DNA from: Thermoanaerobaculia bacterium
GTDB taxonomy: Bacteria; Acidobacteriota; Thermoanaerobaculia; Multivoradales; J023
DNA length: 64,000 bases
NCBI GenBank assembly: GCA_030431255.1
Contig: JAUIJL010000006.1
Span: forward strand, 155,850-219,849
Direction: 5' to 3'
Positions 21,535-64,000 of the stretch are shown piece after piece. The position numbers and the translations under genes are program-made. Within the stretch, counting starts at the first letter, position 1. The number at the start of each line of letters is the position of its first letter. The notes beneath the pieces are model-generated. The model worked only from the letters and a program-made list of their open reading frames with translations, ran no database searches and was not told the origin of the DNA.

Positions 21535-21556
21535 GCGGGATCTCCGTCGTTTCGGC

Positions 21557-23431: not shown

Positions 23432-25005
23432 GCGCTCTTTTCCTCGTGGTATTCCTCTTCAGTATTGACGTCCCACAAATTGCTCTTGTCGGTTCGTCCC
23501 TCGAGAATATTCTCCACCGCCATCATGGCGGTGAGCATGGAGTGATCCTGATTGTTGTAGCGGTGCATGCCGTTTCGACCCACCAAGAAGAGATTCTCGA
23601 AGCCGTCGACGAAACCCCGCAGCTCGTCGAAGCGGTCGTAGCTGCCGAAGTAGGCGGGGTAGGTCTTGGGCATTTTGATCACCACCGCGTCGCTGACCCT
23701 ATCCGCCCGGATAATCTCGATCCGTTCCAGCTCGTCTTTCGCCAAAGCCACCAGGTCGTCGTCGCTTTTCTTCCACAGCTCGTCGGTGTCGTTGCAGAAG
23801 TACTCGAGGCCGATCCAGACCTTGGAGGAGTCGGCCACCATGTAGGGGCTCCAATTGTTGAAGATCTGCATCCGGCCCACCAACACGTCGGGTTCTTGGA
23901 TGTAGATCCAATTGTCTTGGATCAACTGGGTCCCGGCTTTGTCCTCGTGGATCTCCAGATCGTCCAGGAGCAGGCCGACGGTGAGGAAATCGCGGTAGAT
24001 CAGGCCATCGGAGATCTCCTGAAATTCGGCCGGTGCCGCCGGCTCCAAACCGCGAACGAGCTCTTTCATCGGCATGGTGGAGAAGAAATAGTCCCCTTCG
24101 AGCACCTGCCGCTCGCCGGTCTGGGTGTCGACCCACTTCACCGCCACCACCCGATCCCCTTCGGTCACGATGCCGTCCACCCGGGCGAAGGTGCGAATCT
24201 CGCCACCTTGCTCCACCACCCGCCGGGCCACTTCTTCCCACATCTGTCCAGGGCCGAGCTTGGGGTAGAGGAAGCGCTCGATCAGCGAGGTCTCCATGTC
24301 TTTTTGGGCGACGTCACTCCCGGATTTGGGCAACAGGGATTTGAAGAAATGCTTGAGCGCCGAGATGATCGACAGACCTTTGATCCGCTGGGCTCCCCAT
24401 TCGGCGCTGATCTGATCGCAGGCGGTGCCCCAGACTTTTTCGGTGTAGGACTTGAAGAACGTCAGATAGAGCTCTTTGCCGAAGCGGTTGATCAGGAATT
24501 GCTCCAGGCTCTTCTCGTTGCGGATCGGCAAGGCCAAGCTTTTCAGATAGCTCGCACCGATTTTGATCGAGCGCAAGAGACCGAGGTTTGCCAGCGTCTG
24601 CAAGCTCAAGCTGATGGGGTAGTCGAAGAATTTGCGCAAATAGTAGATCCGCGACCGCCGGTTGCGCACCAACATGACCAGATCTTCTTGCTCTGGATCC
24701 ACCACCTTGTCACCGGATACCTCGGTGGTCCGACGGTGATAGGTGATTTGCGCCTCCCCCTCGGACGAGGCTTCCAAGGGCATGATGTCCAGCCACCAAT
24801 TCATCACACGATCGGACTTCGAGAAGAAGCGGTGGCCACCGATGTCGATGCGGTTGCCGTTGTGCTCAACGGTGCGGGCGATGCCGCCCATGTAAGAGCT
24901 CATCTCCAGCACAATCGGCTGGATGTCCGACTGCTTCAATAGCTCGTAGGCAGCGGTCAGCCCCGCGGGGCCCGCGCCGATAATGATCGCCTTGCGGTCG
25001 GACAT
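23428..25005 (-). CDS. FAD-dependent oxidoreductase, long UDP-galactopyranose-mutase-like (Glf family) flavoenzyme
   Basis: N-terminal Rossmann [18 protein letters not shown]...GGHRFF. Central [24 protein letters not shown] matches the Glf motif FIGKELYEAFFKGYTxKQWG. 525 aa; stop overlaps the downstream start (ATGA). Confidence 0.65.
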
Positions 25006-25153
25006 GGGGTGAGGTCGACCTCCTTAAATAAAAACGGATGTGTTTCCGAGGCCGTCGGATCTTACCAGCCAAGTCGATGGTCGACAGCCCAGTGATCGTC
25101 GACAGCCCAGTGATCGTCGACACCGTTCGTGCGGAGCGGTTACCATCGATCCC

Positions 25154-27196: not shown

Positions 27197-27219
27197 TAGA
27201 TCGCCTCATCCACGAAACG

Positions 27220-27320
27220 CCTGGCACCTCTCACGAAACGCCTGGCACCGCGATGAAGCGCCTGGCACCGCGAAGTGCCCGGCACCGCAAAATCTGCACC
27301 GCAAAATCTGCAGCACCGAG
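27220..27320 (+). repeat. Cluster of 4-5 direct copies of a GAAA[CT]GCCTGGCACC-core repeat (REP-like) in a convergent intergenic gap
   Basis: cacgaaacgcctggcacc x2, then gaagcgcctggcacc, gtgcccggcacc, and a degenerate atctgcaccgcaaaatctgcagcacc. All in the same orientation. Confidence 0.7.
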
Positions 27321-27355
27321 CCGAACCCCTGATTCAGCGGTCCGTCAAACGGAAG

Positions 27356-29419
27356 TCACGGGGCGGAACAATATTGAGCGAGCTGGTAATACCCCTCTTG
27401 CCAGTTGATAGGAGTCTCGGCGCACGCCGGCTGCTGAAGGGAAGCACAGGCCTCAACCATGGGATAAGCGCAGACGTTGTCGACGGTCGTATCCCAAGCA
27501 GGACACGGACAGTCGAGTCGGCCGCCCATCGCCGTCAACTGAGACGAGTCGAGAACGCAGCTATCGGTCGCACACGCCTTGTATGCGTCCCACGCCAGAC
27601 GTCGCTCAAGGTCAACATCGATGAGCCCCATGCGCCCGCCACCGTTCACGGAATCCTGCACGTAGTCGCTCCAAGCGAACCAGAAGGCGTGGGCGACTTC
27701 GTCCTCGCTGTATTGGCCGAATAGCGTATAAGCAGCCGACAGGTAGTCGGCCTGCACCGCCGCCGGATCGCCGAAACTCTGCAGGTCGACGAGTGGCACA
27801 CCAAACTCAGTAATCCACAGCGGCACCGGCCGGGACATCAGATTGAGCACGTCGTCGATCGCGCTCTCCATGGTCTGCCCCTGGGGATACGCAGGCACCC
27901 CGGCGAGTCTTTTCCCGTAAGGGTGTACTGCAACGCCGTCGTAGGCCAAGGTTGCGTCGGTTTCGAGCTCGAAGAGGATCTCGTCGAAATAGTCCAACCA
28001 ATTCTGCCCCGCCGGCCCGCTGAGAATTACCGGTTTCGAGCTGACCGTACGCAAAGCCGCAGAGCCCTGGCGGATCAAATCCGGGAAAGCGTTCGACGGG
28101 ACGTCGGTGAGATCGGGTTCGTTCCAGAGCTCGTAAGCATCGACGTAGTCATCGTAGGAATTAGCAAATGACAGCAGATTGTCGGCGAATTGATCTTGGT
28201 ACGCGTACCAAAAGCAATTGCCGGGAATCTGAAAGCGATCCGTCTCACATAAGGTATCGACGAAGGATTGCGAATTGAAGACGACGATCAGATTGATGTT
28301 GGCTTGATTCAACGCTTCGCCGAGGTTGCGGACCATCTCCCAGTTGCCCGCATAAACGATCGTCCGCACCCAGCGCACACCGAGCGCCTGCAGCTGCGCT
28401 ACGGTCGGCGCCGAAACTGGCGGACCGTTAGCGTTGATGGCCAGCCCAAAGCAATTCAGGTTACGTGGACCACCATCGGCGCATGGCGAGCCGCCGATCG
28501 CCTGCCAACCATCGGGATCGCAGCGATACTGCTGGTTGTCGCCGCCGCACACCGTGTAGCCACAATAGGTCGAGTCGGGGTTGATCGCGTTACCCCAGTA
28601 GTCCGAGCCGTTGGTGCAGCGGCAACTCGGCGAAGGGGTCGCGCACGGCGAGCCGCCGCGCGACTGCCAGCCGGAGGTCGTGCACTCGTAGATCTGATTG
28701 TCGGCTCCGCAGACGTCGAGCCCGCAATAGGTCGACGCGGGATCGATTGCATGACCCCAATAGTCGGTTCCACCAGTGCATGTGCAGCTTGTCGGAGAGC
28801 CCGCGCAGGGGCTGCCGCCGCGCGACGCCCAACCTGTCGAAGTGCACTCATAGTTCTGGTTGTCGCCGCCACACACCGTGTAGCCGCAGTACGTTGAGGC
28901 TGGATTGATCGCGTTACCCCAATAATCCGAGCCGCCAGAGCATGAGCAGGACGGTGAAGGCGGCGGTGTGGAGCCGCAGCCACTCGGAAAGGAGTCTTGA
29001 TAGTCGTAGTAGCCGCGCACCCAATCCGCGTCGCTATAAGACGCGTCGCCGTTCGGATCGCAATAACCACCGGGCCAAGTCATGCCACAGCCGGGGGTCG
29101 ATGGCGCATGGTGGCAGAAATTGTCGAAACCGGCCGCCGAGCTGCACGGGCAGCTCTCTGATGCGTTGCAGCCATTCGGATACTGGCCCCGATATTCGTT
29201 GTAGCCACGCACCCAATCAGCGTCGGTGTAAGACGCGTCACCGTTCGGGTCACAATAGCCGCCGGGCCAGGTCATGCTGCAGCCGGCAGTCGAGGGCGCA
29301 TGATGGCAGAAATTGTCAAAACCGGCCGCTGAGCTACACGGACAAACTGCGCCGGCCGTCGCGGGCAGCAGGAGGCAGGTGAAGGCAAGCACGGCGAGAG
29401 CTAAGATAAATCGATGCAT
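27356..29419 (-). CDS. Secreted GH5-family glycoside hydrolase with N-terminal tandem Cys-rich modules
   Basis: Signal peptide. 2 x ~70-aa module (CPCSSAAGFDNFCHHAPST.GC.MTWPGGYCDPNGDASY.DADWVRGY). 3 x ~50-aa module (C.C.GG.DYWG.AI.P.STYCG..VCG.DNQ.Y.C...GW...GGSPCA). Catalytic domain has ELWNEPDL (acid/base NEP) and LWITEFGVP (nucleophile TEFG), the GH5 hallmarks. Cys-rich C-tail. Confidence 0.7.
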   Translation of the reverse strand: MHRFILALAVLAFTCLLLPATAGAVCPCSSAAGFDNFCHHAPSTAGCSMTWPGGYCDPNGDASYTDADWVRGYNEYRGQYPNGCNASESCPCSSAAGFDNFCHHAPSTPGCGMTWPGGYCDPNGDASYSDADWVRGYYDYQDSFPSGCGSTPPPSPSCSCSGGSDYWGNAINPASTYCGYTVCGGDNQNYECTSTGWASRGGSPCAGSPTSCTCTGGTDYWGHAIDPASTYCGLDVCGADNQIYECTTSGWQSRGGSPCATPSPSCRCTNGSDYWGNAINPDSTYCGYTVCGGDNQQYRCDPDGWQAIGGSPCADGGPRNLNCFGLAINANGPPVSAPTVAQLQALGVRWVRTIVYAGNWEMVRNLGEALNQANINLIVVFNSQSFVDTLCETDRFQIPGNCFWYAYQDQFADNLLSFANSYDDYVDAYELWNEPDLTDVPSNAFPDLIRQGSAALRTVSSKPVILSGPAGQNWLDYFDEILFELETDATLAYDGVAVHPYGKRLAGVPAYPQGQTMESAIDDVLNLMSRPVPLWITEFGVPLVDLQSFGDPAAVQADYLSAAYTLFGQYSEDEVAHAFWFAWSDYVQDSVNGGGRMGLIDVDLERRLAWDAYKACATDSCVLDSSQLTAMGGRLDCPCPAWDTTVDNVCAYPMVEACASLQQPACAETPINWQEGYYQLAQYCSAP
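28460..29350 (-). repeat. Intragenic tandem DNA repeats encoding the Cys-rich modules of the GH5 protein
   Basis: Repeated protein modules listed above. Spurious antisense ORFs in this region translate to repetitive peptides. Confidence 0.6.
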
Positions 29420-29682
29420 TGTATTTCCTTGAGAACAGAGTAGACAGGTTTTCGGTAAGCGTACGCGTAAAAAGCATGTTTATTGACCAGTAATATCATC
29501 AGATGACCGCGAATAGATCAGCGACCTAGCTCAATCTGCACATTGTACTTAAAGAGAGACATATTTACAATTTTCGAAATAACGCCCTCAGTGAGTCCAG
29601 CAGACACGCTATGGGAGGCTCCGTCCAGGAGCCCGCCCCGCCGGCCCATAACGGGAAACCTGCGCAATACCCGCCGTAACAA

Positions 29683-29752
29683 AGTACCCGGCACCCACGA
29701 TGAAGGGCACCACGATGAAGTGCCTGGCACCGCGAAATGCCCGGCACCGCGA
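29683..29752 (+). repeat. GCCTGGCACC-core repeat cluster (3-4 copies) upstream of the transposase-like gene
   Basis: gtacccggcacc, gaagtgcctggcaccgcga, aatgcccggcaccgcga; same orientation as the other clusters. Confidence 0.65.
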
Positions 29753-29896
29753 GGTCTCCCGCCAGACCCCAAAAGACGCTCAGCGTCAAGTTTTTTGCCT
29801 CCACTGCAGAATTGGCGCTCTTTTTTCCGTCCTAGCTTCTAAGAAGCCCCGAAGTATGTCTTCTTCGGCCGCCAAACACTCTTAGGAGGCAAAACC

Positions 29897-30877
29897 ATGG
29901 GACGCGAGCCAAGATACGTTCCCCCCAACAGTCTGCAACACGTTACCGACGTCACTTTTCAGAATCGTCCACTTTTACGCCCGTCGAAGGAGGTCAACGA
30001 ACGCATTCTCGGCGTGATTGGGCGAGCGCAAAAGAAATACGAGATGACCATTTGCGGGATAGTCGTTTTATCCACCCACTGGCATTTTCTCCTTCGGCCC
30101 AAGGACGCCTTCCACCTGTCGTCCTTCATGTGCTTCGTTAAAACCAATGTTTCCAAGGAGATCGGCATACATCTTCTCGGCTGGAGAGGTTCCCTCTTCG
30201 GTGGTCGATACCACTCGTCGACTGTCTCTGACGAGGAGATCGCTCAAGTTGGCGTGCTTCGCTATCTCCTCGCTCATGGCCCAAAGGAGCTCTTGGTGGA
30301 TTCCGTCGCGGAGTGGCCCGGAGCCCATAGCGCCGTCCCCACCGTCAAGGGCCAATGCATGGTCGGTGAGTGGATCGATCGCACCTCGTCCTACAGCGCC
30401 CGATCCCGACGGGGCGGATTGATCGACCTGAACGCTTTTACGATCGAGGAGAAGGTTGTGATCTCGCCTCTCCCTTGCTGGGAGCACCTACCCGAGTCCC
30501 AGTGGCGCGGGGCGGTTGGGGCTTTGGTCGACGACATCAACCGTGAGGCTGCTGTGATCCGACGGGATCTCAAGAAAACCAGCCTGGGTGTCACCCGAAT
30601 CTTGGCCAACGATCCGGAGAAACGTCCGAATCACGTGGAAAAGTCTCCGAAACCTAGATTCCATGCCCGAGATCCGGCCGTCTATCGAGCAATGCTCAGC
30701 ATTTGGCGTGAGGTGATCCAAAGCTTTCGAGAGGCCTCGGAGAAGCTTCGCTCCGGGATCCGAAGCGTGGCATTCCCAGAGGGGACTTTCCCGCCTGGGT
30801 TACCGTTCGTACCCTTCAGCGAAGAGACCCTCTTGGGAACTGGGTTGGTCCTGAACCGAGGTCAACCGACCTGCTGA
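29897..30877 (+). CDS. IS200-like HuH/Y1 tyrosine transposase-like protein with ~150-aa C-terminal extension (RAYT-like)
   Basis: MTICGIVVLSTHWHFLL (HuH motif H-x-H + hydrophobics), KTNVSKEI, and WRGSLFGGRYHSSTV (catalytic Tyr region) are colinear with IS200 TnpA (DHVHLL ... WSRGYFVSTVG). The gene and its flanks are visibly AT-richer than the surrounding genome. Confidence 0.55.
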   Translation: MGREPRYVPPNSLQHVTDVTFQNRPLLRPSKEVNERILGVIGRAQKKYEMTICGIVVLSTHWHFLLRPKDAFHLSSFMCFVKTNVSKEIGIHLLGWRGSLFGGRYHSSTVSDEEIAQVGVLRYLLAHGPKELLVDSVAEWPGAHSAVPTVKGQCMVGEWIDRTSSYSARSRRGGLIDLNAFTIEEKVVISPLPCWEHLPESQWRGAVGALVDDINREAAVIRRDLKKTSLGVTRILANDPEKRPNHVEKSPKPRFHARDPAVYRAMLSIWREVIQSFREASEKLRSGIRSVAFPEGTFPPGLPFVPFSEETLLGTGLVLNRGQPTC

Positions 30878-31159
30878 AGCCAGGGTGTCGTCAGCTCTGC
30901 CGGAAGAGCCTCGAACCGGCCCCATTCCTCTTTGATTTCCGGGATCTCGTCCGACGATCTGTCGGACTAGGGAGAGGTACGCCTTGGAGCAGCACTCGCG
31001 ACCCCGACTCGCAGGACGAACGAGCCATCAGCACAGATTGGGCCATTCACCCGTAGATATGCCTGGCACCCTTTCGAGGCTGAGCGCACTTGTAGTGCCG
31101 ACTTTTTTGCTAAGTCATTGAAAACATTAGACCGGGCATCGTGAGCTGCGGAAGTTGGG

Positions 31160-31200
31160 CTAGGCACCGCCGTCAGCGAAATGCCCGGCACCTCTACGAA
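31160..31200 (+). repeat. GCCTGGCACC-core repeat copies (2) downstream of the transposase-like gene; a further single copy lies at ~31055-31071
   Basis: ctaggcaccgcc...gaaatgcccggcacctctacgaa; gatatgcctggcaccc at 31055. Confidence 0.55.
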
Positions 31201-54496: not shown

Positions 54497-55275
54497 CGAG
54501 AGCCCTCCGCCCGGCGTCCGCGGGCATATTCCGGATATTTTTCGACCAGCTTTTGGCGCAGCTGCTTGCGCGCGTTGAAAAGATGATTGCGCACGGTGGA
54601 TTCTCGGCAGCCGACGATCTCCGACACCTCTTTCGAGGGCAGGCCCTCGACTTCGCGCAGCAAAAAGACCATGCGCTGTTTTTCGGTCAGGTCGGCGGAA
54701 AGCTCTTGGAAGATGTCCATGATCTCGCGCTCGTGCAGATTGGCGCGATCCCGGCGAGCGCGATCCTCAAAGCCGGTTTGGATGTGCAGGCGGACCGGAT
54801 CGGTGTTGCGTTGCTTGCTCTGGCGCGACCTCAGCTGGTCGATGGCCAGGTTGGTGGCGATCCGATAGATCCACGTGTTCGGGCTCCACCGATCGTCGAA
54901 TCGATCCCGGTGCTCCCACAGACGAAAAAAGGTGATCTGCACGATGTCGCGCGCCTCTTCGGCGTCGTGGAGGATTCGGTTCACCGTGTTGACGAGGGGT
55001 CCGGTCTTGCGCTCGATCAGCTCGTCAAGGGCCAGCTCGTCGTCGTTCTTCAGGGCCCAGAGCAGCTCCTTGTCGGTGGCCTCCCGCAGCTCGACCCGGT
55101 GTCGGTTGACGGAGAAGGCCAGCTTGGGGCCGGTCGGCGTCGAGCCTGTTGTCTGTGCTGCGGTTAAGGTGGACATGGTTTGCTCTCTGGGTGCGTCGAC
55201 CTCCGCCCTGGGCGGATCGTCGTGGGTCTCGGGCGGGTCTTTGGTCGAGACCCCGTCGTCTGTTGTGGATGCCAT
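54493..55275 (-). CDS. RNA polymerase sigma-70 factor, ECF subfamily
   Basis: Region 2 (ITFFRLWEHRDRFDDRWSPNTWIYRIATNLAIDQLR) and region 4 (LPSKEVSEIVGCRESTVRNHLFNARKQLR). Start either 55275 or ATG 55176. Confidence 0.8.
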   Translation of the reverse strand: MASTTDDGVSTKDPPETHDDPPRAEVDAPREQTMSTLTAAQTTGSTPTGPKLAFSVNRHRVELREATDKELLWALKNDDELALDELIERKTGPLVNTVNRILHDAEEARDIVQITFFRLWEHRDRFDDRWSPNTWIYRIATNLAIDQLRSRQSKQRNTDPVRLHIQTGFEDRARRDRANLHEREIMDIFQELSADLTEKQRMVFLLREVEGLPSKEVSEIVGCRESTVRNHLFNARKQLRQKLVEKYPEYARGRRAEGSR

Positions 55276-55392
55276 GGATCTTGGCCTGCTTTCGTGGGAT
55301 GTATACGGTCACACCGAGAGGAGCGTCTAAAGACAATCGATTTTTTCCGGAATCGATCGACGACGACCGGCAGGCATTATACTCCCGGCTTC

Positions 55393-56730
55393 ATGGGATT
55401 CCTTCGCGCATTCGCTTGGTGGCTCTACCAGGGCTTGCAGATCTTGTTTCTGGGCCTCAGCGGCCCCTTCTACGCCTTGCGCCGTGGCGGCAAGGGTTTG
55501 GGGCACTACCTGCCGACCCTACGCGGTCGAGCGACCCTGGACGCCCCACCCGCCGGACCGGAGCCCGCGGAGCCACCGGTTTGGATCCACGCGGTATCCG
55601 TCGGAGAGGTGGGGGTGGCAGCCACCTTCGCCTCCCGCCTACCGAGCTCCCTGCCGCTGGTGATCACCACCGTGACGCCGACCGGACAAGCCCAGGCTAG
55701 CCGTCTTTTCCAAGGCAAAGCTTTCCAGGGACGACACGTCCGCGTGGCTTACCTGCCCTTCGACCTCGGCCCGATCGTGCGCCGATTCCTGCGCCGATTC
55801 CGACCCCGAGCCTTGGTGCTGACCGAAGGTGACTATTGGCCGTTGACCCTCTCGATCTTGCGGCGAAGGGGTCTTCCCATCGCCGTGGTCAACGGTCGCA
55901 TCAGCGATCGAGCTTTTCGACGCCAACAGCGCATCGGGCGAATCAACGACCTCTTTTATGCACCGGTCCAACGTTTCGGCCTGCAAACCGAGCAGGACCG
56001 AAGCCGATTGGTGGATCTGGGGGCCGATCCCGCGCGGGTCCATGTGACCGGCAATCTGAAATTCGACAGCCGCCCGCCCGCCGAGGTGCTCGACGTCGAG
56101 AAGCTGATCGAGGAGCTGGCGGCCGGTCGCCCGATCCTGGTCGCCGGCTCGACCATGGACGGCGAGGACGAGCTGGTGCTCGACGCATTCAGCGGGTTGG
56201 GGGCAGGAGAACGCGCCCTCCTGGTGATCGCCCCGCGTCACCCAGAACGCTGGGATCGGGTCGCGGGCTTGATGCTCGACCGCGGATATACCGTGGCTCG
56301 GCGCAGCGCCTTCGGTCCGGAATCCACAGGTCTGCGGTCAGAGCAGCGGGTCGATCTCGTGCTTCTGGACAGCCTCGGGGAGCTGGCGTCGATCTATCGC
56401 GTCGCGGCCGCGGCCTTCATCGGCGGAACCCTGGTGCCCACGGGCGGACACAATCCCCTGGAGCCGGCGGTCTTCGGCACGCCGACCGTGGTCGGGCCCT
56501 CGATGTTCAATTTTCAGGAAATGGCCGACTCCTTTGACCAATTCAATGCTTGGGGTCGAGCCGCCGATAGCGACGAGCTGGGGCGCATCTGGGATTCTTG
56601 GCTGGAGCAGCCTGAGCTCGGCCAAGCCGTGGGCGGGCGGGCCCTGGAGCTCTTGGAAGCCAATCGAGGTGCATTGGATCGCACCCTGGAGCTGCTTCAA
56701 CCCTTGTTGGACCGGAGCCCGGAGCCGTGA
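55393..56730 (+). CDS. waaA: 3-deoxy-D-manno-octulosonic acid (Kdo) transferase
   Basis: IHAVSVGEVGVAATFASRLP...LVITTVTPTG, and a C-terminal GT-B half with ...GGHNPLEPAVFGTPTVVGP. ATG 55393 chosen (ORF track 55180). Confidence 0.85.
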   Translation: MGFLRAFAWWLYQGLQILFLGLSGPFYALRRGGKGLGHYLPTLRGRATLDAPPAGPEPAEPPVWIHAVSVGEVGVAATFASRLPSSLPLVITTVTPTGQAQASRLFQGKAFQGRHVRVAYLPFDLGPIVRRFLRRFRPRALVLTEGDYWPLTLSILRRRGLPIAVVNGRISDRAFRRQQRIGRINDLFYAPVQRFGLQTEQDRSRLVDLGADPARVHVTGNLKFDSRPPAEVLDVEKLIEELAAGRPILVAGSTMDGEDELVLDAFSGLGAGERALLVIAPRHPERWDRVAGLMLDRGYTVARRSAFGPESTGLRSEQRVDLVLLDSLGELASIYRVAAAAFIGGTLVPTGGHNPLEPAVFGTPTVVGPSMFNFQEMADSFDQFNAWGRAADSDELGRIWDSWLEQPELGQAVGGRALELLEANRGALDRTLELLQPLLDRSPEP

Positions 56731-57770
56731 CGTCCCAAAAGCTGATCGCTCCGCCGAAACCGGGCTCACCCTGGCAGCGCTTCTATGGCGGCGTCCACGG
56801 TCTGCGCGCTCGCTACTATCGAAGCCGCGCCCTCAGGCTTCCACGCCCCGTGGTCAGCATCGGCAACTTGCATTGGGGCGGCAGCGGCAAGACCCCCATG
56901 ACCGCGGCCGTGGCCACCCATCTCCGGGATCGAGGCTGGTCGCCCGCCATTTTGTCGCGGGGTTACGGCAGCAAAGGTAAAGGCGTGCGCATCGTCAGCA
57001 GGGGGCAAGGACCTCTGCTCGGCCCGCGGCTGGCCGGTGACGAGCCGGTTTTGCTCGCGGGCATGTTGCAAGGCGTCTCCGTAGTGGTGTGCCCCGATCG
57101 TCACCACGCCGGCGAGCATGCCTTGGAGCGGCTGGACCCGGCCCCCGACATCTTCTTGCTCGACGACGGTTTTTCCCACCTCCGCCTCTACCGCGATCTG
57201 GACATCCTGGTCTTTCCCGCCTCCGACCCCTTTGCCGGCGGTCGACTCCTGCCGTCGGGGCGACTGCGGGAACCGCTGGCCGCCAGCCGTCGTGCCCATG
57301 CCGCCGTCCTCTCCGGCTTTTCCGGCAGCCTCGCCCGGGGCGACGCCCTGGCCAAGGCCCTACGCCCCCACGGTTTTGCCGGACCGGGATTCGTGTCCAG
57401 CACGGTCAGCGAGCCGGCCAGACCCTTCGGTCCAGGACATATCGAGCCCGGGGCCTCGGTCTTCGCGGTCTCCGCTATAGCTCGACCCGAGCGTTTTCTA
57501 GACACCGTGCAAGAGCAGGGTTTCAGGATCGTCGACCACCTGTCTTTTCCGGACCATCATCGCTATTCCGACGCCGCTCTCCAGCAGATTCGGAAAGTCT
57601 TCGAAGGCAGCGGAGCGGAGTGGCTGATCACCACCGGCAAGGACAGGGTCAAGCTCCAGGGTCGTCTCGAGCTGCCGGCCGCTGAGATCCCGGTCCGCGC
57701 CCAACCGGACCCTGAGCTCTTCCACTGGCTGGACCTGCGCTTGGACGAAATCCGAGGCCGCAAACCATGA
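56727..57770 (+). CDS. lpxK: Tetraacyldisaccharide 4'-kinase
   Basis: VVSIGNLHWGGSGKTPMTAAVA...ILSRGYGSKGKG is the LpxK P-loop signature. GTG start overlaps the waaA stop (GTGA). Confidence 0.85.
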   Translation: MTSQKLIAPPKPGSPWQRFYGGVHGLRARYYRSRALRLPRPVVSIGNLHWGGSGKTPMTAAVATHLRDRGWSPAILSRGYGSKGKGVRIVSRGQGPLLGPRLAGDEPVLLAGMLQGVSVVVCPDRHHAGEHALERLDPAPDIFLLDDGFSHLRLYRDLDILVFPASDPFAGGRLLPSGRLREPLAASRRAHAAVLSGFSGSLARGDALAKALRPHGFAGPGFVSSTVSEPARPFGPGHIEPGASVFAVSAIARPERFLDTVQEQGFRIVDHLSFPDHHRYSDAALQQIRKVFEGSGAEWLITTGKDRVKLQGRLELPAAEIPVRAQPDPELFHWLDLRLDEIRGRKP

Positions 57771-58768
57771 CCGATGCTGAGACCGAGCCACGCCGTCGAT
57801 GTTTGGTGGTCTTGCCGGCCGATCTCGGCGCGGCCCTCTGGAGCTTGCCGGCCCTGGCGTCCTTGAGCCGATCCAGAAGGCTGTTGGTGGTGCTCGCCAC
57901 CGAGGATCAGATGGCGATCCTCGACCCGACCCTTCTGCGATGGCGGCTGCGGGACTACCCCAAGCACGTGGCCGTGCCGGTGACCCTGCTGCGGGACACT
58001 GTCACCGCGAAGAGCTTGGCAGCGCTCGCCTTCGACGAAGCCCTCTTCGTGTCGCCCGATTGGCGCGATGTCGGCTTGGCGCGCAAAGCCGACATCCGCC
58101 GCCTGTGGGGCTTCCGCGGAGGCGCGGCAGGATTTCGGCTGAGCCATCCGGTCCCTATGCCCGCAGACCCGCCGGAGCATCGGTCTGAGCGTCTGAAGCC
58201 CTTGGTACGAGCCATGGACGTCGCTTGGCGACCCGTCGAGCTCGACTCGGAGCTTCATATTCCCGAGACCTGGAATAGAGTGGGCAAAGAACGCCTGGAG
58301 AAAGCGCGGCTGAAGGTCGGCGAATCACCCATCGTCGGTGTCTTCATCGGTGGCGACGGGGGAGAAGCTTGGCCCGCCGAGTCGTTCGAAGCGCTCCTGC
58401 AAGGGCTTCGACGACATCATCCGGATTGGCAATTCGTGATCCTCTCCACCGATGCCGAGCTGTGGTCGTCAGTGCTCTTGCACGAGCGCACGGGCAAAAT
58501 CCACCCGGTGATCGGTCCGGAGCTGAGCCTCGACGGGCTGGCCGCGGTATTGCTCCATCTCGAGCTCCTCATCAGCAGCGGCTCCGAGCTGTTGCAGCTC
58601 AGCGCCCTCGTCGGCACTCCGACCCTGGGTCTCTTTCAAAGAAACGGTCGACGTCGGGCACCGCGAGGCAAAAAGCATCGCCACCTGGAGCGCAGCCCGC
58701 TCAAAAGCCTAACGGTCGAGGACGTGCTGGCGGTCTGCGAAGCCATGATGGCGCGTCGGCAAGGCTGA
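57767..58768 (+). CDS. Family 9 glycosyltransferase (LPS heptosyltransferase-like)
   Basis: ATG overlaps the lpxK stop. GT9 architecture (…VVLPADLGAALWSLPALASL…, C-terminal …LISSGSELLQLSALVGTPTLGLF). Sits in the LPS core operon. Confidence 0.65.
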   Translation: MTDAETEPRRRCLVVLPADLGAALWSLPALASLSRSRRLLVVLATEDQMAILDPTLLRWRLRDYPKHVAVPVTLLRDTVTAKSLAALAFDEALFVSPDWRDVGLARKADIRRLWGFRGGAAGFRLSHPVPMPADPPEHRSERLKPLVRAMDVAWRPVELDSELHIPETWNRVGKERLEKARLKVGESPIVGVFIGGDGGEAWPAESFEALLQGLRRHHPDWQFVILSTDAELWSSVLLHERTGKIHPVIGPELSLDGLAAVLLHLELLISSGSELLQLSALVGTPTLGLFQRNGRRRAPRGKKHRHLERSPLKSLTVEDVLAVCEAMMARRQG

Positions 58769-58857: not shown

Positions 58858-59210
58858 GGGGGCGCACCGGTTTCGACGGGTAACAGGCAGCTCCGTAGTC
58901 GCGTGCCGGATCCATCCGTTAATTGGAACAAAAACACAAAAGCCAACGATAATTTGGCCCTCGCGGCAGCTTGACCGCGCGTCTTGATGACGAGCCCTGA
59001 TCTACGGCTCCCATCAAGGCGCTACTTAAAGTAGATCAATGGGACGCGGTTGGCTTCGGGCCACGTCCCGGATACTTACCGAAGCTGGCCGAGGGGCCGG
59101 GTTGCTTTCCGCCCAAACTCCTCGGCGAGACAAAAACCGGAAAGCTACGCACGTAGAAGCTGCGGATCTGAGTTGCTCGGACGTGGGTTCGATTCCCACC
59201 GCCTCCACCA
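58858..59210 (+). ncRNA. ssrA: tmRNA (ssrA), standard one-piece; tag reading frame GCC AAC GAT AAT TTG GCC CTC GCG GCA GCT TGA = (A)NDNLALAAA
   Basis: 5' GGGGGCGCACCGGUUUCGACGGG (canonical tmRNA 5' end) pairs with the 3' acceptor strand CGCCUCC + A + CCA, including a G3:U wobble. T-arm GGGUUCGAUUCCCAC. The tag ORF ends in ALAAA and is followed by a stop. Confidence 0.85.
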
Positions 59211-59254
59211 TCTTCCCTTTCCCTCCTTGCTTCACCTCCCCTTGTCGGGAACCC

Positions 59255-59445
59255 TTGCCCGGCACCATTTCGAGAAACGCCTGGCACCTCATACTCGGCC
59301 TCTCTGAAGCCATTTCGAGAAATGCCTGGCACCTCATATTCGGCCTCTCTGAAAGATGCCTGGCACCGCTGAGATGCCATTTCGAGAAATGCCTGGCACC
59401 TCATATTTTGCCTCTCTGAAAAATGCCTGGCACCGCTGAGAAGCT
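59255..59445 (+). repeat. Cluster of ~6 GCCTGGCACC-core repeats, including three ~45-bp units (catttcgagaaa[ct]gcctggcacctcata[ct]tcggcctctctgaa), immediately 3' of ssrA
   Basis: Read directly from sequence; same orientation and same core as the clusters at 27.2, 29.7 and 31.1-31.2 kb. Confidence 0.75.
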
Positions 59446-59495
59446 GAACACGAGCTTTCCGTGCTCAGGATTCCTGGACGTTGCCCGGCGTTGTC

Positions 59496-59840
59496 CTAAC
59501 AGTCGAAGCACACCGGGTTGAGCAGAAGGAAGACCCGGTCGGGCGCACTAGGATCCTGGCCCTGGATGGACAGGGGGTAACTCGCGGTCGACGCAAAACC
59601 TTCGAGCGTGCCCGTCCCCGCATACGTCCCTGGCGCGATGGACCGAAACCACGCCTTTCCCTCGGCGTCGGTGGCTTGTTGAGCACACCGCTCGGAGCTT
59701 GCGATGTAGGGACAGAGCGCCAATGTCACCCCGGCAAGGGCTGACCCCCCGCTTCCATGGCCACCACCTCGAGAGAGTCCTTGTGGCTGAAGATAAAGGC
59801 AGCCTCGCCTTGGAACGAGCGGGCCTGTGCTCGGTAGAGC
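59496..59840 (-). other. Out-of-frame C-terminal segment resembling a carboxypeptidase-regulatory-like/SdrD-B-like beta-sandwich domain; may be a frameshifted continuation of the upstream large gene or a separate short ORF
   Basis: Frame-B translation ...ALAGVTLALCPYIASSERCAQQATDAEGKAWFRSIAPGTYAGTGTLEGFAS... is protein-like (LAG.TV.L...TDA.G...F..L.PGTY pattern). Further upstream in the same frame it turns into an Arg-rich off-frame artefact. Confidence 0.25.
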
Positions 59841-59902
59841 TCCACCGGCTTCTCTGTGCTCGGCTCGAAGGGAATCAGCGGTGGCTTCCAATCCGGGGCC
59901 GG

Positions 59903-62900
59903 CTACGGGGACGACCAAGCCGAGGTGTCGCCGGACTCGAAGCCGTCGGCGAAGAGCTCCTCCAGGGCGCCGAAGAAGAGGACGTCGTAGTAGACGTCGA
60001 AGGCCGTCGTGTCGCCCGGGAGCGCGGCGAAGGTGACCAGGGCCGAGAGCGCCCCGCCCGGGGCCTGGCCGGCGATCTCCACCGCGATCCAGGTCGCACC
60101 GGTGTCGCCGGCAGCGGCGTCGCCGAAAGAGGCGATGGGGTCGCCCTCGCACCCGGCCGCGGAGAAGAGCTCGGCCAGCAGGCCGGCGCTCGCCGGCAGC
60201 GCCCCGGGGGCGTCGACGCGGGCGCGGGCCCGGAGGACCAGATGGGTGGCGTCGACGGGCACACACTGGCTGAGCCCTATCGGTCCCCCGCCGGTGCCGT
60301 CGCTGCGCGAAAGCCGAGCGGAGCCGGACGTGGGGAGCCCGTCGGCGTCGAGCGTGTCGTGGAGGATCGGGCTGCCGAGAGCCTCCACCGTCATCCAACC
60401 GCCCAGCCCCTCGTCGAGGTTCGGATTGCGCAGCAGGTTCGTCGTCGACACGACGAAGTCGAGGACGAAGTCGCCGCCCGGGGCGCCGTCGGCGTCGCCG
60501 TCCAGCGGATCGTCTGCTTCGTCGTGCAGTCCCGCGGCGCAGCCGAGGAGCCGATGGCGACCCTTACCGAGCGCCAGGTCGTCGGCGAGCCAGATCTGGG
60601 CTCGGCGCGGCGTGGCGAAGTACTCCACCCGCTCGATCTCGATCACGTCGTCGGAGGGGGCGACGCCGGCGCAGTCGGAGGTCTCCACCGTGCCGTCGCC
60701 GCCGTCGACGACGAGCCTCCAACTCGCCGGGTTGGTGACGTCAACCGGGTCGATGTCGCCCGCAGGATCGGTCAGTGCCCGGCTGAAATCGACCGCGAGC
60801 TGGGTGATCGGGATCCCCACCACTTCGCCGTCGTCGAGTCGGCCATCGCCCGTGTCGGCGACGGTCGCGACGGCGGTCACGCTCGCCGGAACAGTGGAGA
60901 TGGCGTAGGGACCGGCCGTCGCCACCTCAGTCCAGTTCCCTGCCGCGTCGACCCCGCAAACGTGGGCGTACCAGGTCCCGTCGGCGAGCGTCGGGCTCGA
61001 CGCCTCCGTCGTCGAGGGGTCGACGTCGGCTACCTCGTCACAGGTCCACTGCGGGTCGAGCTCGAAAGCGACGGCATAACCGGCGACGCCGCTCGAGGCG
61101 TCGCTTGAGGCGTCGCTTGAGGCGTCCCAGACGATGTCGATGACCTGCAGCGTCGAGGTGTCGTCGGTCGGGTGGCTGGTGCTGACGAGTCCGGTAACGG
61201 GCGACGGCGGCACCGTGTCGATCCAGAACGGTCCCGCCGTGGCGACCGGGCTCGCGTTGCCGACGGCGTCGGCGGCGCAGAGATGGAAGTACCAGGTGCC
61301 GTCCGCGAGCGGTGGGCTCGAGGTGCCGACGGCGTTCGCCGGCAGGCTCTGGGCGAAGTCGCAGCCCCAGGTCGTGGAGGCATTGAAGGCGTAGCCGTAG
61401 GCGGCGACGCCGGAGAGCGCGTCGATGGCCGCGGTCCACACCACGTCGATCACCGCCTCGTGGCTCGGGGCACCGCCCAGACCATGACTCGGGCTGTCGA
61501 GCGCGGTGGGCGGCGTGGGCGGCGTGGCGTCGACGCGGAAGGGTCCGGCGTGGCTCACGGTGCAGTTGTCGGCGTGGTCGCAGGTCAGGAGATGGGCGTA
61601 GCGGTCGCCGTCAGGCTGGGGATCGGTCGCGGCCCCATGCGGGTCGAGCCCGTGAGGAAAAAAGACGTCGCCGGCGTCGGGAACCGTGTCGGGCGCCGAA
61701 TCGAGGCGGAGGAAGTAGCCGCCGATGCCCGAGCCGGCGTCCTCGTCGAAGGCGCCGGACCACACGAGATCGATCACCGGCTCGACCGAGTAGGTGCCGG
61801 CCATGTGGCTGGTGCTGGTCAGCTCCTCGGGAGCGGTCGGAGCGACCCGGTCGCGCCGGAAGACGGCCAGGGCATCGTCGAGGGTGCCGGTGGCGTAGAC
61901 GCTGAGATCGTCCGGAGAAACGGCCACGGCGGTGGCGCCGTCGAGGCCGTCGATGCCGCCGATGTCGTCGCGCTCGGCCTCGACGGGCGAGAGCGTGCCG
62001 TCGGCCGCGCGCGCGAAGACGACCAGGGCGTCGCCGCCGAAGCCGGTGGCATAGACCAGGGCCCCGTCCGGGCTCACGGCGACGTCGGTGGCGATGCCGA
62101 GGCCCTGGACGCCGCCCGTGCCATCGAGGTGCGCCTCGAGGAAGATGAGCCGGCCGTCGGCCTGGCGCTCGAAGACGGCTAGGCCGTTGTCGTCCTGACC
62201 CGTCACGTAGACGGTGGCGCCGTCGGGCGACACGGCGACGGCGGAGGCACCGGCGAGCCCGTCGATGGCACCGCCATCGACGTGGACCTCGACGAAGCTC
62301 AGCTCACCGGTCAGGGGATCGCGGTCGAAGACCGCCACCGAGTCGCCGTCGAGGCCGGCGGCGTAGAGCTGCTCGCCGCCCGGGGCGAGGGCGAGGGCGA
62401 CGACGCGGCCGAGGCCGTCGACGCCGGGGTCGGAGTCGTTCAGGACGCCTTCGAAGCTCAGCCGACCGTCGATCGGATGGCGCGAGAAGACGGTCAAGGC
62501 GTCGGACTCGCTGCCGGCCACGTAGATGTGCTCCCCGCTCGGACCGATGGCGACGGCGAGCGCGATGGCCCCCTCGAGCCCCTCGACCGTCTCGCTGGTC
62601 TCGACGTCTCGCTGTCCATCGCGTTCGAGCTCGACGAGGGTCAGCGTGCCGTCGGCCGGATCGCGCTCGAAGACCGCCAGGGCGCCGTCGTCGAAGGCCG
62701 CGGCGTAGACGCGGTCGCCGGCGGGCGAGACGGCGACGGCTTCGATGCCGGAGAGCCCCGCCAGGCCTTCGGAGCCGTCACGGTAGGCGGCGACGAAGGC
62801 GAGGCGCCCAGTGCCGTCCTCGCGCTCGAAGACCGTGAGGGCGTCGTCGCCCCGGCCCGCGACGTAGACGTGCCGTCCGTCGGGAGCGACGTCGACGTCG

Positions 62901-63991
62901 ATGGCGCCGAAGAGGCCGTCGACGCCGGCCTCGCCGTCGCGCTGACGCTCGATGAAGGTGAGGAGACGCGGCGCGGCGAGGATGGTGCCGAGGCCGCCGC
63001 CGGGCCGAATGCCCGCACCGATCGGATCTGCGAGGACCAACGTGAAGGTCTCGTCCGCCTCGCTCTCGGCGTCGGCCGGCACCCGGACCGGGATCTCGGC
63101 CTCGAGCTCGCCGGCGGGGATGACCGCGCTCCCCGGTTCGAGCTCGTAGTCTTCGGGTCCCGCGGTGCCGGGGACGGCGGACCAGGAGAACGAGACGTCC
63201 TCGTCCCAGACATGGCTGAGGCGTACCGTGAACGAGGCTTCGACGGCCTCGTTCGGGGGCTCGACCACGGAGAGATTGGTGACGGAGAGTGCCGGCGGAG
63301 TGTCGTCGTCGAGGATCGTCACCTTGGCGACGGGGTCGAGCAGGACGGCCTCCGTGGGGTTCGAGAGCTCGACGAAGAACGCCTCGCCGAGGATCCGGCG
63401 CATCGGGTCCGCCTCCGGCAGGGCGTCGTCGAAGACGGTGACGACGGCGGTCGCGACCGTCTCGCCGGGAGCAAAGGTCGCGACGCCCGAGGCCGCGGCG
63501 TAGTCGTCGCCCGAGACGGCGTCGCCGTCCATCGTCGACCACTCGACGGTGACCGGCTCGTCGGCGGCGAAGGAGAGCCGGAGGGTGACCGGCACCTCGA
63601 GCCCGAAGGGGCCCGCCACGCGCTCGGCCCCGGCCGTGTCGACCACCACCAACCCCGGAAAGCGGGGAACGAAGTTGGTGTCGAGGTCGAGGGCCTGGAC
63701 CTCGCCGGGATCGCCGATCACCGCTTCGCCGGCGAGCGCACCGTCGAGGAAGAGGGTGGCGTCGTCGCCGGGCCGGGCGCGGCCCGGAAGCGCGGGGTCG
63801 GCGAAGTCCATCGGCACCCGCAGCGCGAAGTAGCATGCTCCGACACCGTCGCACGGTCCGAGGAGCGGGTCGCTGCCGAGCTCATAGCTCGCCAGCACCT
63901 CACCGCCCACCGCCAGGGTGACGGTGCCCAGGGTGGCCATGGCGTCGTCGACCGTCGCCGCGCCGTAGATCGTGTGGTCGGGGTCCGGCAA
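59903..63991 (-). CDS. Large secreted/surface multidomain protein: Calx-beta domains + ~7-8 bladed YVTN/lactonase-type beta-propeller + Ig/FN3-like modules (N-terminus probably beyond window end)
   Basis: Calx-beta signatures (VTVFDDALPEADP..., VTILDDDTP). Propeller blades DGRHVYVAGRGDDALTVFER, DGATVYVTGQDDNGLAVFERQ and similar, x7-8. Repeated ...ADGTWY.H.C..DA.GN modules. Ends ...FADGFESGDTSAWSSP. Confidence 0.65.
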   Translation of the reverse strand: MPDPDHTIYGAATVDDAMATLGTVTLAVGGEVLASYELGSDPLLGPCDGVGACYFALRVPMDFADPALPGRARPGDDATLFLDGALAGEAVIGDPGEVQALDLDTNFVPRFPGLVVVDTAGAERVAGPFGLEVPVTLRLSFAADEPVTVEWSTMDGDAVSGDDYAAASGVATFAPGETVATAVVTVFDDALPEADPMRRILGEAFFVELSNPTEAVLLDPVAKVTILDDDTPPALSVTNLSVVEPPNEAVEASFTVRLSHVWDEDVSFSWSAVPGTAGPEDYELEPGSAVIPAGELEAEIPVRVPADAESEADETFTLVLADPIGAGIRPGGGLGTILAAPRLLTFIERQRDGEAGVDGLFGAIDVDVAPDGRHVYVAGRGDDALTVFEREDGTGRLAFVAAYRDGSEGLAGLSGIEAVAVSPAGDRVYAAAFDDGALAVFERDPADGTLTLVELERDGQRDVETSETVEGLEGAIALAVAIGPSGEHIYVAGSESDALTVFSRHPIDGRLSFEGVLNDSDPGVDGLGRVVALALAPGGEQLYAAGLDGDSVAVFDRDPLTGELSFVEVHVDGGAIDGLAGASAVAVSPDGATVYVTGQDDNGLAVFERQADGRLIFLEAHLDGTGGVQGLGIATDVAVSPDGALVYATGFGGDALVVFARAADGTLSPVEAERDDIGGIDGLDGATAVAVSPDDLSVYATGTLDDALAVFRRDRVAPTAPEELTSTSHMAGTYSVEPVIDLVWSGAFDEDAGSGIGGYFLRLDSAPDTVPDAGDVFFPHGLDPHGAATDPQPDGDRYAHLLTCDHADNCTVSHAGPFRVDATPPTPPTALDSPSHGLGGAPSHEAVIDVVWTAAIDALSGVAAYGYAFNASTTWGCDFAQSLPANAVGTSSPPLADGTWYFHLCAADAVGNASPVATAGPFWIDTVPPSPVTGLVSTSHPTDDTSTLQVIDIVWDASSDASSDASSGVAGYAVAFELDPQWTCDEVADVDPSTTEASSPTLADGTWYAHVCGVDAAGNWTEVATAGPYAISTVPASVTAVATVADTGDGRLDDGEVVGIPITQLAVDFSRALTDPAGDIDPVDVTNPASWRLVVDGGDGTVETSDCAGVAPSDDVIEIERVEYFATPRRAQIWLADDLALGKGRHRLLGCAAGLHDEADDPLDGDADGAPGGDFVLDFVVSTTNLLRNPNLDEGLGGWMTVEALGSPILHDTLDADGLPTSGSARLSRSDGTGGGPIGLSQCVPVDATHLVLRARARVDAPGALPASAGLLAELFSAAGCEGDPIASFGDAAAGDTGATWIAVEIAGQAPGGALSALVTFAALPGDTTAFDVYYDVLFFGALEELFADGFESGDTSAWSSP

Positions 63992-64000
63992 GGCGGCGGC

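Follow-up and report, generated by a model that had tools for sequence, protein, structure and literature searches.

We analysed the surroundings of ssrA, the gene for transfer-messenger RNA (tmRNA), in a 64,000-nt stretch of DNA from a Thermoanaerobaculia bacterium (GenBank assembly GCA_030431255.1, contig JAUIJL010000006.1, positions 155,850 to 219,849; hereafter the window, whose own coordinates are used below). ssrA is an ordinary, intact, single tmRNA gene that closes a conserved waaA-lpxK-GT9 operon. Its 3' flank is a lineage-specific variable region and, as comparison with related loci suggests, a hotspot of gene gain. In the window, ssrA is followed by an array of six short repeats and by a surface-protein gene on the opposite strand that looks horizontally acquired. 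The probable reading of the locus is that an intact ssrA adjoins a flank in which genes are gained and a repeat array that has a Y1 transposase-like partner and does not serve as an attachment (att) site. An initial annotation had raised the possibility of an insertion targeted to ssrA. The classical model of such an insertion, an integrase-mediated island, is weakened and is unsupported in all visible DNA.

Results

ssrA is intact and is followed by different DNA in each relative

A single tmRNA gene was called by ARAGORN (58858-59210, + strand), with the tag peptide ANDNLALAAA* closed by a stop. Rfam RF00023 matched the same coordinates over the full length of the model (positions 1-374) with 156.9 bits against a gathering score of 47 (E 6.6e-62). 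The tmRNA and tag named in the initial annotation were thereby borne out, and the covariance-model check of the boundaries returned these same positions. As expected of a tmRNA, the gene closes with CCA on a tRNA-like acceptor end and contains a tag frame that runs into a stop; it terminates in ...CCTCCACCA at 59210, and its 3'-end sequence reads ...GGTTCGATTCCCACCGCCTCCACCA. The final conserved protein gene upstream of it is GT9, which encodes a family 9 glycosyltransferase (Table 1).

Related loci were fetched through a protein search with GT9, which returned orthologues of 87, 85, 71, and 46% identity in uncultured Acidobacteriota. The contigs, all metagenomic, were L015 (GT9 identity 87%), L001 (85%), L002-L007 (71%), and L138 and L139 (46%; L138 is the outgroup); L015 was too short to inform on the junction. 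The order pilus/type II secretion system genes, extracytoplasmic function (ECF) sigma factor, waaA, lpxK, GT9, and ssrA is shared by the window, L001, L002, and L138. The upstream genes up to ssrA are common to four metagenomic relatives. ARAGORN placed an orthologous ssrA at the equivalent position in L001, L002-L006, and L138, with the tag ANDNLALAAA in most and ANDNLAVAAA in L138. Over about 11.5 kb, the window is 87% identical in nucleotide sequence to L001 and 75-83% identical to L002 (blastn). This similarity ends at about 59238 against L001 and at about 59224 against L002, that is, 14-28 nt past CCA. The four-way alignment is invariant through CCA and then breaks down.

Downstream of ssrA, every related genome examined has different DNA, and this interruption of synteny is one of the features by which ssrA islands are recognised. 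In the outgroup L138, ssrA is followed by 154 nt and then by the gene of a 155-aa coiled-coil lipoprotein. L001 has an antitoxin/PemK pair (0.66 kb), three repeat units, the orthologous lipoprotein gene, and a Pkinase gene; the G+C content at third codon positions (GC3) of the toxin-antitoxin genes is 0.58-0.62 versus 0.72-0.75 in their neighbours. In L002, three RND efflux genes form an operon (6 kb, native-like GC3) that precedes the lipoprotein gene and the Pkinase gene, and there is no repeat. The orthology of the lipoprotein among relatives is backed by 63% and 34-36% identity, and the kinase of L001 and L002 is a 1107-aa protein encoded on the opposite strand after the lipoprotein gene. 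Neither the lipoprotein nor the kinase gene was found in the window, where their place is taken by the array, a spacer of about 400 nt, and the surface-protein gene. Conserved synteny of ssrA with the large gene, which the initial annotation had named as the outcome that would speak against an insertion, is clearly not what the relatives have.

Because the outgroup has the lipoprotein gene right after ssrA, this adjacency is probably ancestral. The simplest reading is such an ancestral state followed by independent gains in three lineages, with the PemK pair (L001) and the RND operon (L002) gained between ssrA and the lipoprotein gene and the surface-protein gene gained in the window.

No integrase or attachment-site signature is visible

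Islands specific to ssrA have the gene itself at one boundary and a direct repeat of about 20 bp of its 3' end at the other, and the integration module usually lies beside the att site (PMC3146451). The search for attR used 120 nt around the end of ssrA and all 11-mers of its last 45 nt. No stretch of at least 13 nt from these last 45 nt recurs in the 64-kb window, and none at all in 59211-64000; the two other matches in the window, of 11 and 12 nt, lie far upstream and are at chance level. No stretch of at least 14 nt recurs in the complete inserts between ssrA and the lipoprotein gene of L001 and L002. Candidates for attR across the window and the loci, all chance matches of 11-14 nt, were rejected.

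No recombinase gene lies in 59211-64000, where the array, the spacer, and the surface-protein gene leave no room for one. In L001 and L002, gene calling of the inserts gave the toxin-antitoxin pair and the RND genes only, with no integrase. These inserts are bordered by neither direct nor inverted repeats, and a search around them found no target-site duplications or terminal repeats. With neither a copy of the ssrA 3' end nor an integrase in these places, the ssrA-targeted insertion considered at the outset is unsupported. The accompanying idea that the junction marks the edge of an acquired island stands in one part and falls in another: conserved and acquired DNA do meet at the 3' end of ssrA, as the synteny break and the GC3 outlier described below indicate, and the visible DNA bears no island signature of the integrase type. 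The array of six repeats at ssrA is not an attachment site; its repeats are part of a dispersed family with a link to a Y1 transposase.

The surface-protein gene looks acquired

The Calx-beta/beta-propeller gene that had been noticed on the opposite strand was confirmed by Pfam. Its 5' end lies just outside the window; 1362 aa are visible, and an estimated 20-40 codons are missing. The best homologues, from Holophagales and Thermoanaerobaculales metagenome-assembled genomes, are 49-50% identical. Two of them, P0018 (Holophagales, 1339 aa) and P0019 (1385 aa), align across 100% of the visible 1362 aa and have the C-terminal motif ...FAD(D/G)FESGxxxxWS... in common. Since these homologues cover all visible residues and have the same C-terminus, the protein should measure about 1,390 aa; it is large but not the giant adhesin-like product initially supposed.

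The GC3 of the gene is 0.91 overall and 0.88-0.93 in each 200-codon slice. Values for the other 39 window genes lie between 0.66 and 0.82, all 40 (surface-protein gene included) average 0.765 (sd 0.043), and the homologues, at 0.78-0.82, are also lower. Such atypical composition is what is expected of cargo in ssrA islands. The gene is missing at the ssrA flank of L001, L002, and L138, and no ssrA was found in any inspected genomic context of its homologues. It looks compositionally foreign and horizontally acquired, as judged from codon composition and distribution.

The P0019 gene lies on a contig of 17,728 bp (L012; ENA ERZ25074695 ctg333826_5x_c), beside a 2945-aa open reading frame (ORF) and another of at least 627 aa. 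This small contig comes from the same sample as the relative L001, and its '_c' suffix may mean circular; a mobile element and an assembly artefact are both conceivable.

Between the array and the surface-protein gene, an ORF at 59496-59909 (- strand) matched Pfam CarboxypepD_reg with E 0.0013 and 19.5 bits, below the cut-off of 32.3. Its GC3 of 0.63 and GC2 (second positions) of 0.62 are unlike the coding pattern of the source genome. With a sub-threshold Pfam match only, a non-coding-like GC3, and no homologue in any fetched locus, it was rejected both as a real gene and as an integrase remnant. The spacer 59496..59902 is probably non-coding or decayed.

The array at ssrA belongs to a dispersed, strand-oriented repeat family

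The six repeat copies noted shortly after the CCA end were verified. The first core begins 47 nt past CCA, and the cores span 59257-59434, all on the + strand; five are exact GCCTGGCACC (59279, 59324, 59358, 59391, and 59425) and one is GCCCGGCACC (59257). Tandem Repeats Finder reported two 67-nt copies at 95% (59309-59441), each combining a 45-nt with a 22-nt sub-unit. Together with the repeat search, this identifies the array as a recent local duplication within a dispersed, strand-oriented family with the unit GAAAYGCCYGGCACC. The family consensus is approximately CGAAAYGCCYGGCACCG; units measure about 17-22 nt, and their only palindrome is the 9-nt TGCCTGGCA.

With one mismatch allowed, GCCYGGCACC matches the window 24 times, compared with 7.5 +/- 2.7 times in shuffles, and none of 100 shuffles reached 24. 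Away from ssrA, the core clusters lie at 26838, 27219-27286, 29722-29748, 31061, and 31183, around the Y1 ORF. The family forms five intergenic clusters in the window, which covers 64 kb only of the genome. The claim that the same repeat flanks a transposase-like islet 28 kb away proved correct, the ORF in question (29897-30877) being a Pfam Y1_Tnp protein. An identical 17-mer stands on either side of the Y1 gene (29732-29748 and 31176-31192, 17/17), and a 52-nt direct repeat (88%; 27244-27295 and 29706-29757) brackets the gene at 27356-29419 (- strand). The latter encodes a 687-aa glycosyl-hydrolase-like protein; the layout looks cassette-like, and the gene contains internal tandem repeats (three copies of about 162 nt, and two copies 192 nt apart).

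Three family units, GAAAAATGCCTGGCACC, occur in L001 at 12267-12353, just before the lipoprotein gene. The proposal of a hotspot for this repeat family gains support from these three copies at the corresponding intergenic position of the closest relative. In 21 kb of the more distant L002, the motif has no copy. Since units occur in the ssrA-lipoprotein zone of both the window and L001 but not in that of L002, the array probably predates the surface-protein insertion, and it is probably unrelated to ssrA function. The toxin-antitoxin pair of L001 lies on the ssrA side of the array, and the foreign gene of the window on the far side. L002 gained 6 kb at the same place with no array, which argues that the hotspot is independent of the repeats. 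Arrays could nevertheless serve as recombination substrates, as the bracketing direct repeats at 27244 and 29706 hint.

Single-strand folding of the array was mildly above shuffles at best (z -2.55 as DNA and -1.68 as RNA). Reading it as a set of hairpins, as REP elements, or as a terminator was rejected, given the weak folding and the absence of any called terminator within the array. A sigma-54 promoter reading of TGGCAC (TGGCAC-N5-TTGC, GG-N10-GC) was rejected as well; the spacing is wrong, and no array contained a match with at most one mismatch. The sole match to the sigma-54 pattern in the window lies outside the arrays and is below chance expectation.

All intergenic copies (26838-31192 and 59254-59441) are on the + strand, and the GC skew of the + strand is negative across the window. 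This suggests that repeat orientation is biased relative to replication, as for elements handled as single-stranded DNA, from arrays too few for statistics.

The Y1 protein is the likely partner of the repeats

The Y1 protein encoded 28 kb from ssrA belongs to a family with at least 314 representative clusters (50% identity) at E<=1e-30, whose members align over about 305 of about 310 aa, that is, over the full length. H61 and H63 (the HUH motif) and Y123 are invariant in 25 aligned members. The protein has a conserved C-terminal extension of about 180 aa, and its tyrosine motif, RYLLAHGPKE, is without NP. No helix-turn-helix (HTH) or Bac_DnaA_C domain was found in the C-terminal part (Pfam, E<=1), the NCBIfam IS200 model gave no match at E<=0.1, and a sequence search of the PDB returned nothing relevant. 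The protein cluster is recorded on 3 contigs, and one distinct place was found among the 3 read. By analogy with REP/RAYT and TIR/TIRYT systems, this RAYT/TIRYT-like Y1/HUH protein is likely the partner of the repeat family; the two co-occur in the window, and the mechanism would be as set out in the Discussion.

A short-read assembly of the same genome (L014, Logan ERR3428547 contig) equals window positions 19897-31129 at 100%. It breaks at 31129, between both repeat copies downstream of the Y1 gene, which hints at multi-copy sequence or a strain variant at this position.

The same core accompanies Y1 homologues in other contigs

When JGI metagenomes were scanned for the 10-mer in three tandem copies, at least 120 stretches were obtained (L017-L136); the scan had no control 10-mer, and the count is therefore silent on how special the motif is. 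Unrelated repeats, tandem or palindromic, make up most of these stretches (GC 0.33-0.76, periods 11-47 nt). Five loci were used, namely three with a window-type flank (L021, L053, and L087) and two with Y1 genes (L090 and L029). In the former three, the flank is GAAAxGCCTGGCACC, which the search pattern did not demand. L090 encodes a 305-aa homologue of the window Y1 protein (35% identity over 280 aa, E 4e-42), with four core copies upstream of the gene on the opposite strand and two downstream; 19 nt, CAAGCGCCTGGCACCTCTA, are common to both sides in inverted orientation. Its protein scored 56.7 bits on the NCBIfam RAYT model and 19.3 bits against a cut-off of 55 on the IS200 model. L029 encodes a 220-aa Y1 protein that passes the RAYT model (83.6 bits against a cut-off of 80), with three copies just past the 3' end of the gene and an inverted GCCTGGCAC upstream. 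The 10-mer accompanies Y1 homologues of just 22-35% mutual identity. Two Y1 genes less than 500 nt from arrays in 0.63 Mb are far above a frequency of about one per megabase, which is our own estimate.

A further Y1 homologue (32% identity) was found on an IMG/VR contig chosen by protein similarity alone (L140), with a short tandem array of a different unit nearby. The array (4092-4277) follows the Y1 gene and has a 22-23-nt unit, ATAAAAGGCTGCCTCTTTGTT, and 58-nt direct repeats at 93% (2731-2788 and 4278-4335) bracket the Y1 gene; the architecture is as in the window, and the motif is different.

Adjacency of the arrays to tRNA or tmRNA genes in the metagenome loci was considered and rejected. 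A tRNA gene occurred in 3 of 120 loci, the nearest about 1 kb from the array, and a tmRNA gene in none. About 30% of the 10-mer copies in L017-L136 extend into a perfect 13-nt palindrome, GGTGCCTGGCACC, and the outer flanks of these palindromes are often complementary (TTGGTGCC.T.GGCACCAA, CTAGGTGCC.T.GGCACCTAG, and CAAGGTGCC.T.GGCACCTTG). These copies are hairpin-type tandem repeats that have a common apex and lie in contigs of very different GC content.

Other features of the region

The features of the window are collected in Table 1. The waaA-like gene probably starts later than 55180, since its orthologues have 448-476 aa. The imperfect hairpin at the distal array border may terminate the convergent transcripts. 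Both the minimum-free-energy and the centroid DNA fold contain a shorter stem at this place (5 pairs, same 7-nt loop). The hairpin is not followed by a T-run, and the terminator scan left it uncalled.

Table 1. Coordinates of ssrA, its neighbours, and the repeat family in the window
Feature	Position	Strand	Description	Evidence
Array	27205..27312	+	Four cores and degenerate units, between convergent sulfatase-like and glycosyl-hydrolase-like genes
Array	29679..29757	+	About 150 nt upstream of the Y1 gene
Y1 (HUH) transposase-like gene	29897..30877	+	326 aa, RAYT/TIRYT-like	Pfam Y1_Tnp (IS200-like family), E 1.1e-7, residues 30-118
Two units downstream of the Y1 gene	31054-31070, 31176-31192 (within 31054..31192)	+
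waaA-like Kdo transferase gene	55180..56730	+	First gene of the upstream lipopolysaccharide (LPS)-core operon	Pfam Glycos_transf_N, E 3.7e-49
lpxK	56727..57770	+	Tetraacyldisaccharide-1-P 4'-kinase	Pfam LpxK, E 1.8e-77
GT9	57767..58768	+	Family 9 glycosyltransferase (heptosyltransferase-like)	Pfam Glyco_transf_9, 27.1 bits, cut-off 22
ssrA	58858..59210	+	One-piece tmRNA, tag ANDNLALAAA, CCA end at 59210	ARAGORN and Rfam RF00023
Pyrimidine-rich trailer	59211..59253	+	Homology to relatives ends inside	blastn end points, four-way alignment
Tandem array	59254..59441	+	Six GCCYGGCACC cores; partial unit, then sub-units A-A-B-A-B (A = 45 nt, B = 22 nt)
Imperfect hairpin	59444..59468		9-position stem, one mismatch, 7-nt loop, at the distal array border	Sequence reading
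Spacer with doubtful ORF or gene remnant	59496..59902 (ORF to 59909)	-	Weak carboxypeptidase-regulatory-like resemblance
Surface-protein gene	59903..beyond 64000	-	Two Calx-beta stretches, 7-bladed lactonase-type beta-propeller, Ig-like repeats, C-terminal motif FADGFESGDTSAWSSP	Pfam

Further observations were made in the related loci. Around the Pkinase gene, too, the other neighbours differ from relative to relative (L016 and L137), and the whole area therefore appears prone to rearrangement. In L137 (1408-4740), the kinase orthologue is split into ORFs of 648 and 454 aa by an apparent frameshift and is followed by glycosyltransferase and LPG-synthase genes, not by the lipoprotein gene and ssrA. 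Within the ssrA-lipoprotein spacer of L138 (about 11500-11560), a terminator-like hairpin is accompanied by a 15-nt unit of different sequence, CCGCGAGCCCCTGGT, in three tandem copies; both occupy the same relative place as the arrays of L001 and the window. Between the lipoprotein and kinase genes of L002 (18283-18744) lies a dense cluster of GC-rich hairpins (e.g., CCCAGGACAAGCGAAGCGCCGTCCTGGG and CCCCTTCGGGG), which could be REP-like elements or structured RNA.

Discussion

The 3' flank of ssrA is known to collect lineage-specific genes, and the locus is an ordinary instance of this. In the reading that we hold to be probable, the surface-protein gene would most likely have arrived by a degraded integrative element, or by recombination, either illegitimate or homologous, into an intergenic region that is convergent and permissive. 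The repeats would have a history of their own. By analogy with REP/RAYT and TIR/TIRYT, the Y1 enzyme would act on the repeat in single-stranded DNA, by binding or cutting, and would seed or amplify repeat copies in intergenic DNA.

Several findings weigh against this reading. The right-hand boundary of the insert is beyond 64000, and an integrase and attR could be there. A gain in the window rather than a loss elsewhere rests on a single outgroup, L138, and high GC3 alone does not prove foreign origin. The best NCBIfam match of the window Y1 protein, REP_Tyr_transpos, scored 41.6 bits, under the cut-off of 80. The repeat copies that flank its gene are direct, not inverted, and the units are without the stable hairpins typical of REPs (array folding z -0.8 to -2.6; -2.55, -1.68, and -0.81). 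The metagenome loci were selected for the 10-mer and are mostly unrelated tandem repeats, with a Y1 gene in only 2 of 120.

Three other accounts of the locus were weighed. If a site-specific recombinase had integrated a circular element at the ssrA 3' end, the intact gene would be attL, and the integrase and attR would lie beyond the window. ssrA is a well-documented target for islands bounded by the gene and a direct repeat of about 20 bp (PMC3146451), and such an event would account for the homology break right at the ssrA 3' end, for the compositionally foreign surface-protein cargo, and for a site that is occupied differently in each relative; the possibly circular 17.7-kb contig that carries P0019, with its '_c' name, would fit too. 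We nevertheless consider this classical island unlikely, given that no integrase stands beside ssrA (the array, a 400-nt spacer, and the surface-protein 3' end take up 59211-64000), that no copy of the ssrA 3' end reaches 13 nt in the window or 14 nt in the L001 and L002 inserts, and that these inserts contain no recombinase. A native origin, with nothing acquired at all, is in our view very improbable. It would have the relatives differ by deletions and rearrangements and would ascribe the high GC3 to the codon or amino-acid bias of the gene itself. Large Calx-beta/propeller proteins are indeed common in Acidobacteriota metagenome-assembled genomes, and the varying Pkinase neighbours (L016 and L137) mark the area as rearrangement-prone. 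This account has to face the lipoprotein gene directly after ssrA in L138, best homologues that are about 50% identical with none at an ssrA locus, and a GC3 of 0.88-0.93 along the whole gene, above all other window genes and the homologues (0.78-0.82).

The arrays themselves might drive rearrangement, with Y1/HUH action or homologous recombination between arrays capturing or shuffling cassettes and so causing the variability of the ssrA flank. The insert breakpoints do adjoin the array, on opposite sides in the window genome and L001, and bracketing by repeats recurs: the gene 27356-29419 lies between 52-nt direct array repeats (88%), the identical 17-mer brackets the window Y1 gene, and the L140 Y1 gene lies between 58-nt direct repeats. 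We give this quite a small chance, since L002 gained its 6-kb operon at the same place with no motif copy in 21 kb, no excision or insertion junctions were observed in a very small sample of arrays, and repeats of the REP type often build up in intergenic DNA with no insertions (PMC3733652). A bolder proposal is that a distinct Y1/HUH clade of about 310 aa, marked by YxxAHGxKE and not Y---NP, uses arrays with the non-hairpin core GCCTGGCACC as cis-elements, and that these arrays are integrase-independent landing pads for foreign genes, the ssrA flank included. This proposal is speculative and doubtful; if true, it would be a new route of island formation beside tmRNA genes.

As a variable flank with an intact ssrA, the locus adds an Acidobacteriota (Thermoanaerobaculia-like) case to the rule that the ssrA 3' flank gathers lineage-specific genes, with integrase and att scars absent wherever this could be checked. 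Island finders that rely on tRNA or tmRNA fragments would miss the region here. The more useful lead is the conserved 10-15-nt core that travels with a poorly studied family of long Y1/HUH proteins in uncultured soil and sediment bacteria. Repeat core and Y1 protein form a concrete, testable protein-DNA pair for the RAYT/TIRYT field, in which the function of the long non-REP subclasses is open (PMC6006769).

Among known systems, the junction is best compared with the ssrA islands of Dehalococcoides, whose integration module lies at attL (PMC3146451). It is like them in its single-copy ssrA, in the break of synteny at the 3' end, and in lineage-specific, atypical cargo just downstream. It differs from them in that the inserts of the relatives are small (0.7 and 6 kb) and contain no recombinase.

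For the repeats, RAYT/REPtron and TIRYT/TIRtron systems have been described, including an Acidobacteria-specific TIRYT group and TIR repeats in dimers and clusters (PMC3733652, PMC6006769). Quentin et al. (2018) reported long Y1 subclasses with C-terminal extensions and without typical REPs, and equated TIRYT with TnpAY1 subclass 2.1 (PMC6006769). REPtrons, made of REP/BIME elements and a RAYT/TnpA-REP gene (PMC3116915, PMC3733652, PMC6006769), resemble the present system in having short intergenic repeats in tandem clusters that flank a Y1/HUH gene with intact HUH and tyrosine, and the likeness is extended by L029, whose array-associated Y1 homologue passes the NCBIfam RAYT model. Unlike REPs, which are imperfect palindromes of 20-40 nt, the window units have no stable hairpin and no GT[AG]G foot (no GTAG or GTGG). 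The window Y1 gene is flanked by direct copies, unlike in REPtrons, with inverted copies in L090 and L029. Its 326-aa protein departs from RAYTs in the C-terminal extension of about 180 aa and in carrying YLLAHG where class 2 proteins have Y---NP.

TIRtrons (Di Nocera et al., 2013; PMC3733652) share with it the long Y1 protein, the C-terminal extension, and flanking non-REP repeats that also occur elsewhere in dimers or clusters; L090 adds a 19-nt terminal inverted repeat that contains the same core. The window differs from TIRtrons in having no inverted copies, no HTH/Bac_DnaA_C similarity, and no Y---NP motif. IS200/IS605 elements belong to the same Y1_Tnp catalytic fold family and have end elements in the same orientation on one strand, as do the direct copies of the window, whereas the window Y1 element is without subterminal hairpins and without tnpB. 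Because of its 9-nt palindrome, weak folding, missing foot, and direct copies, and a Y1 protein with neither NP motif nor HTH, the repeat is not filed as a member of either named family, REP or TIR; it is described as 'REP/TIR-like, linked to a Y1 gene'.

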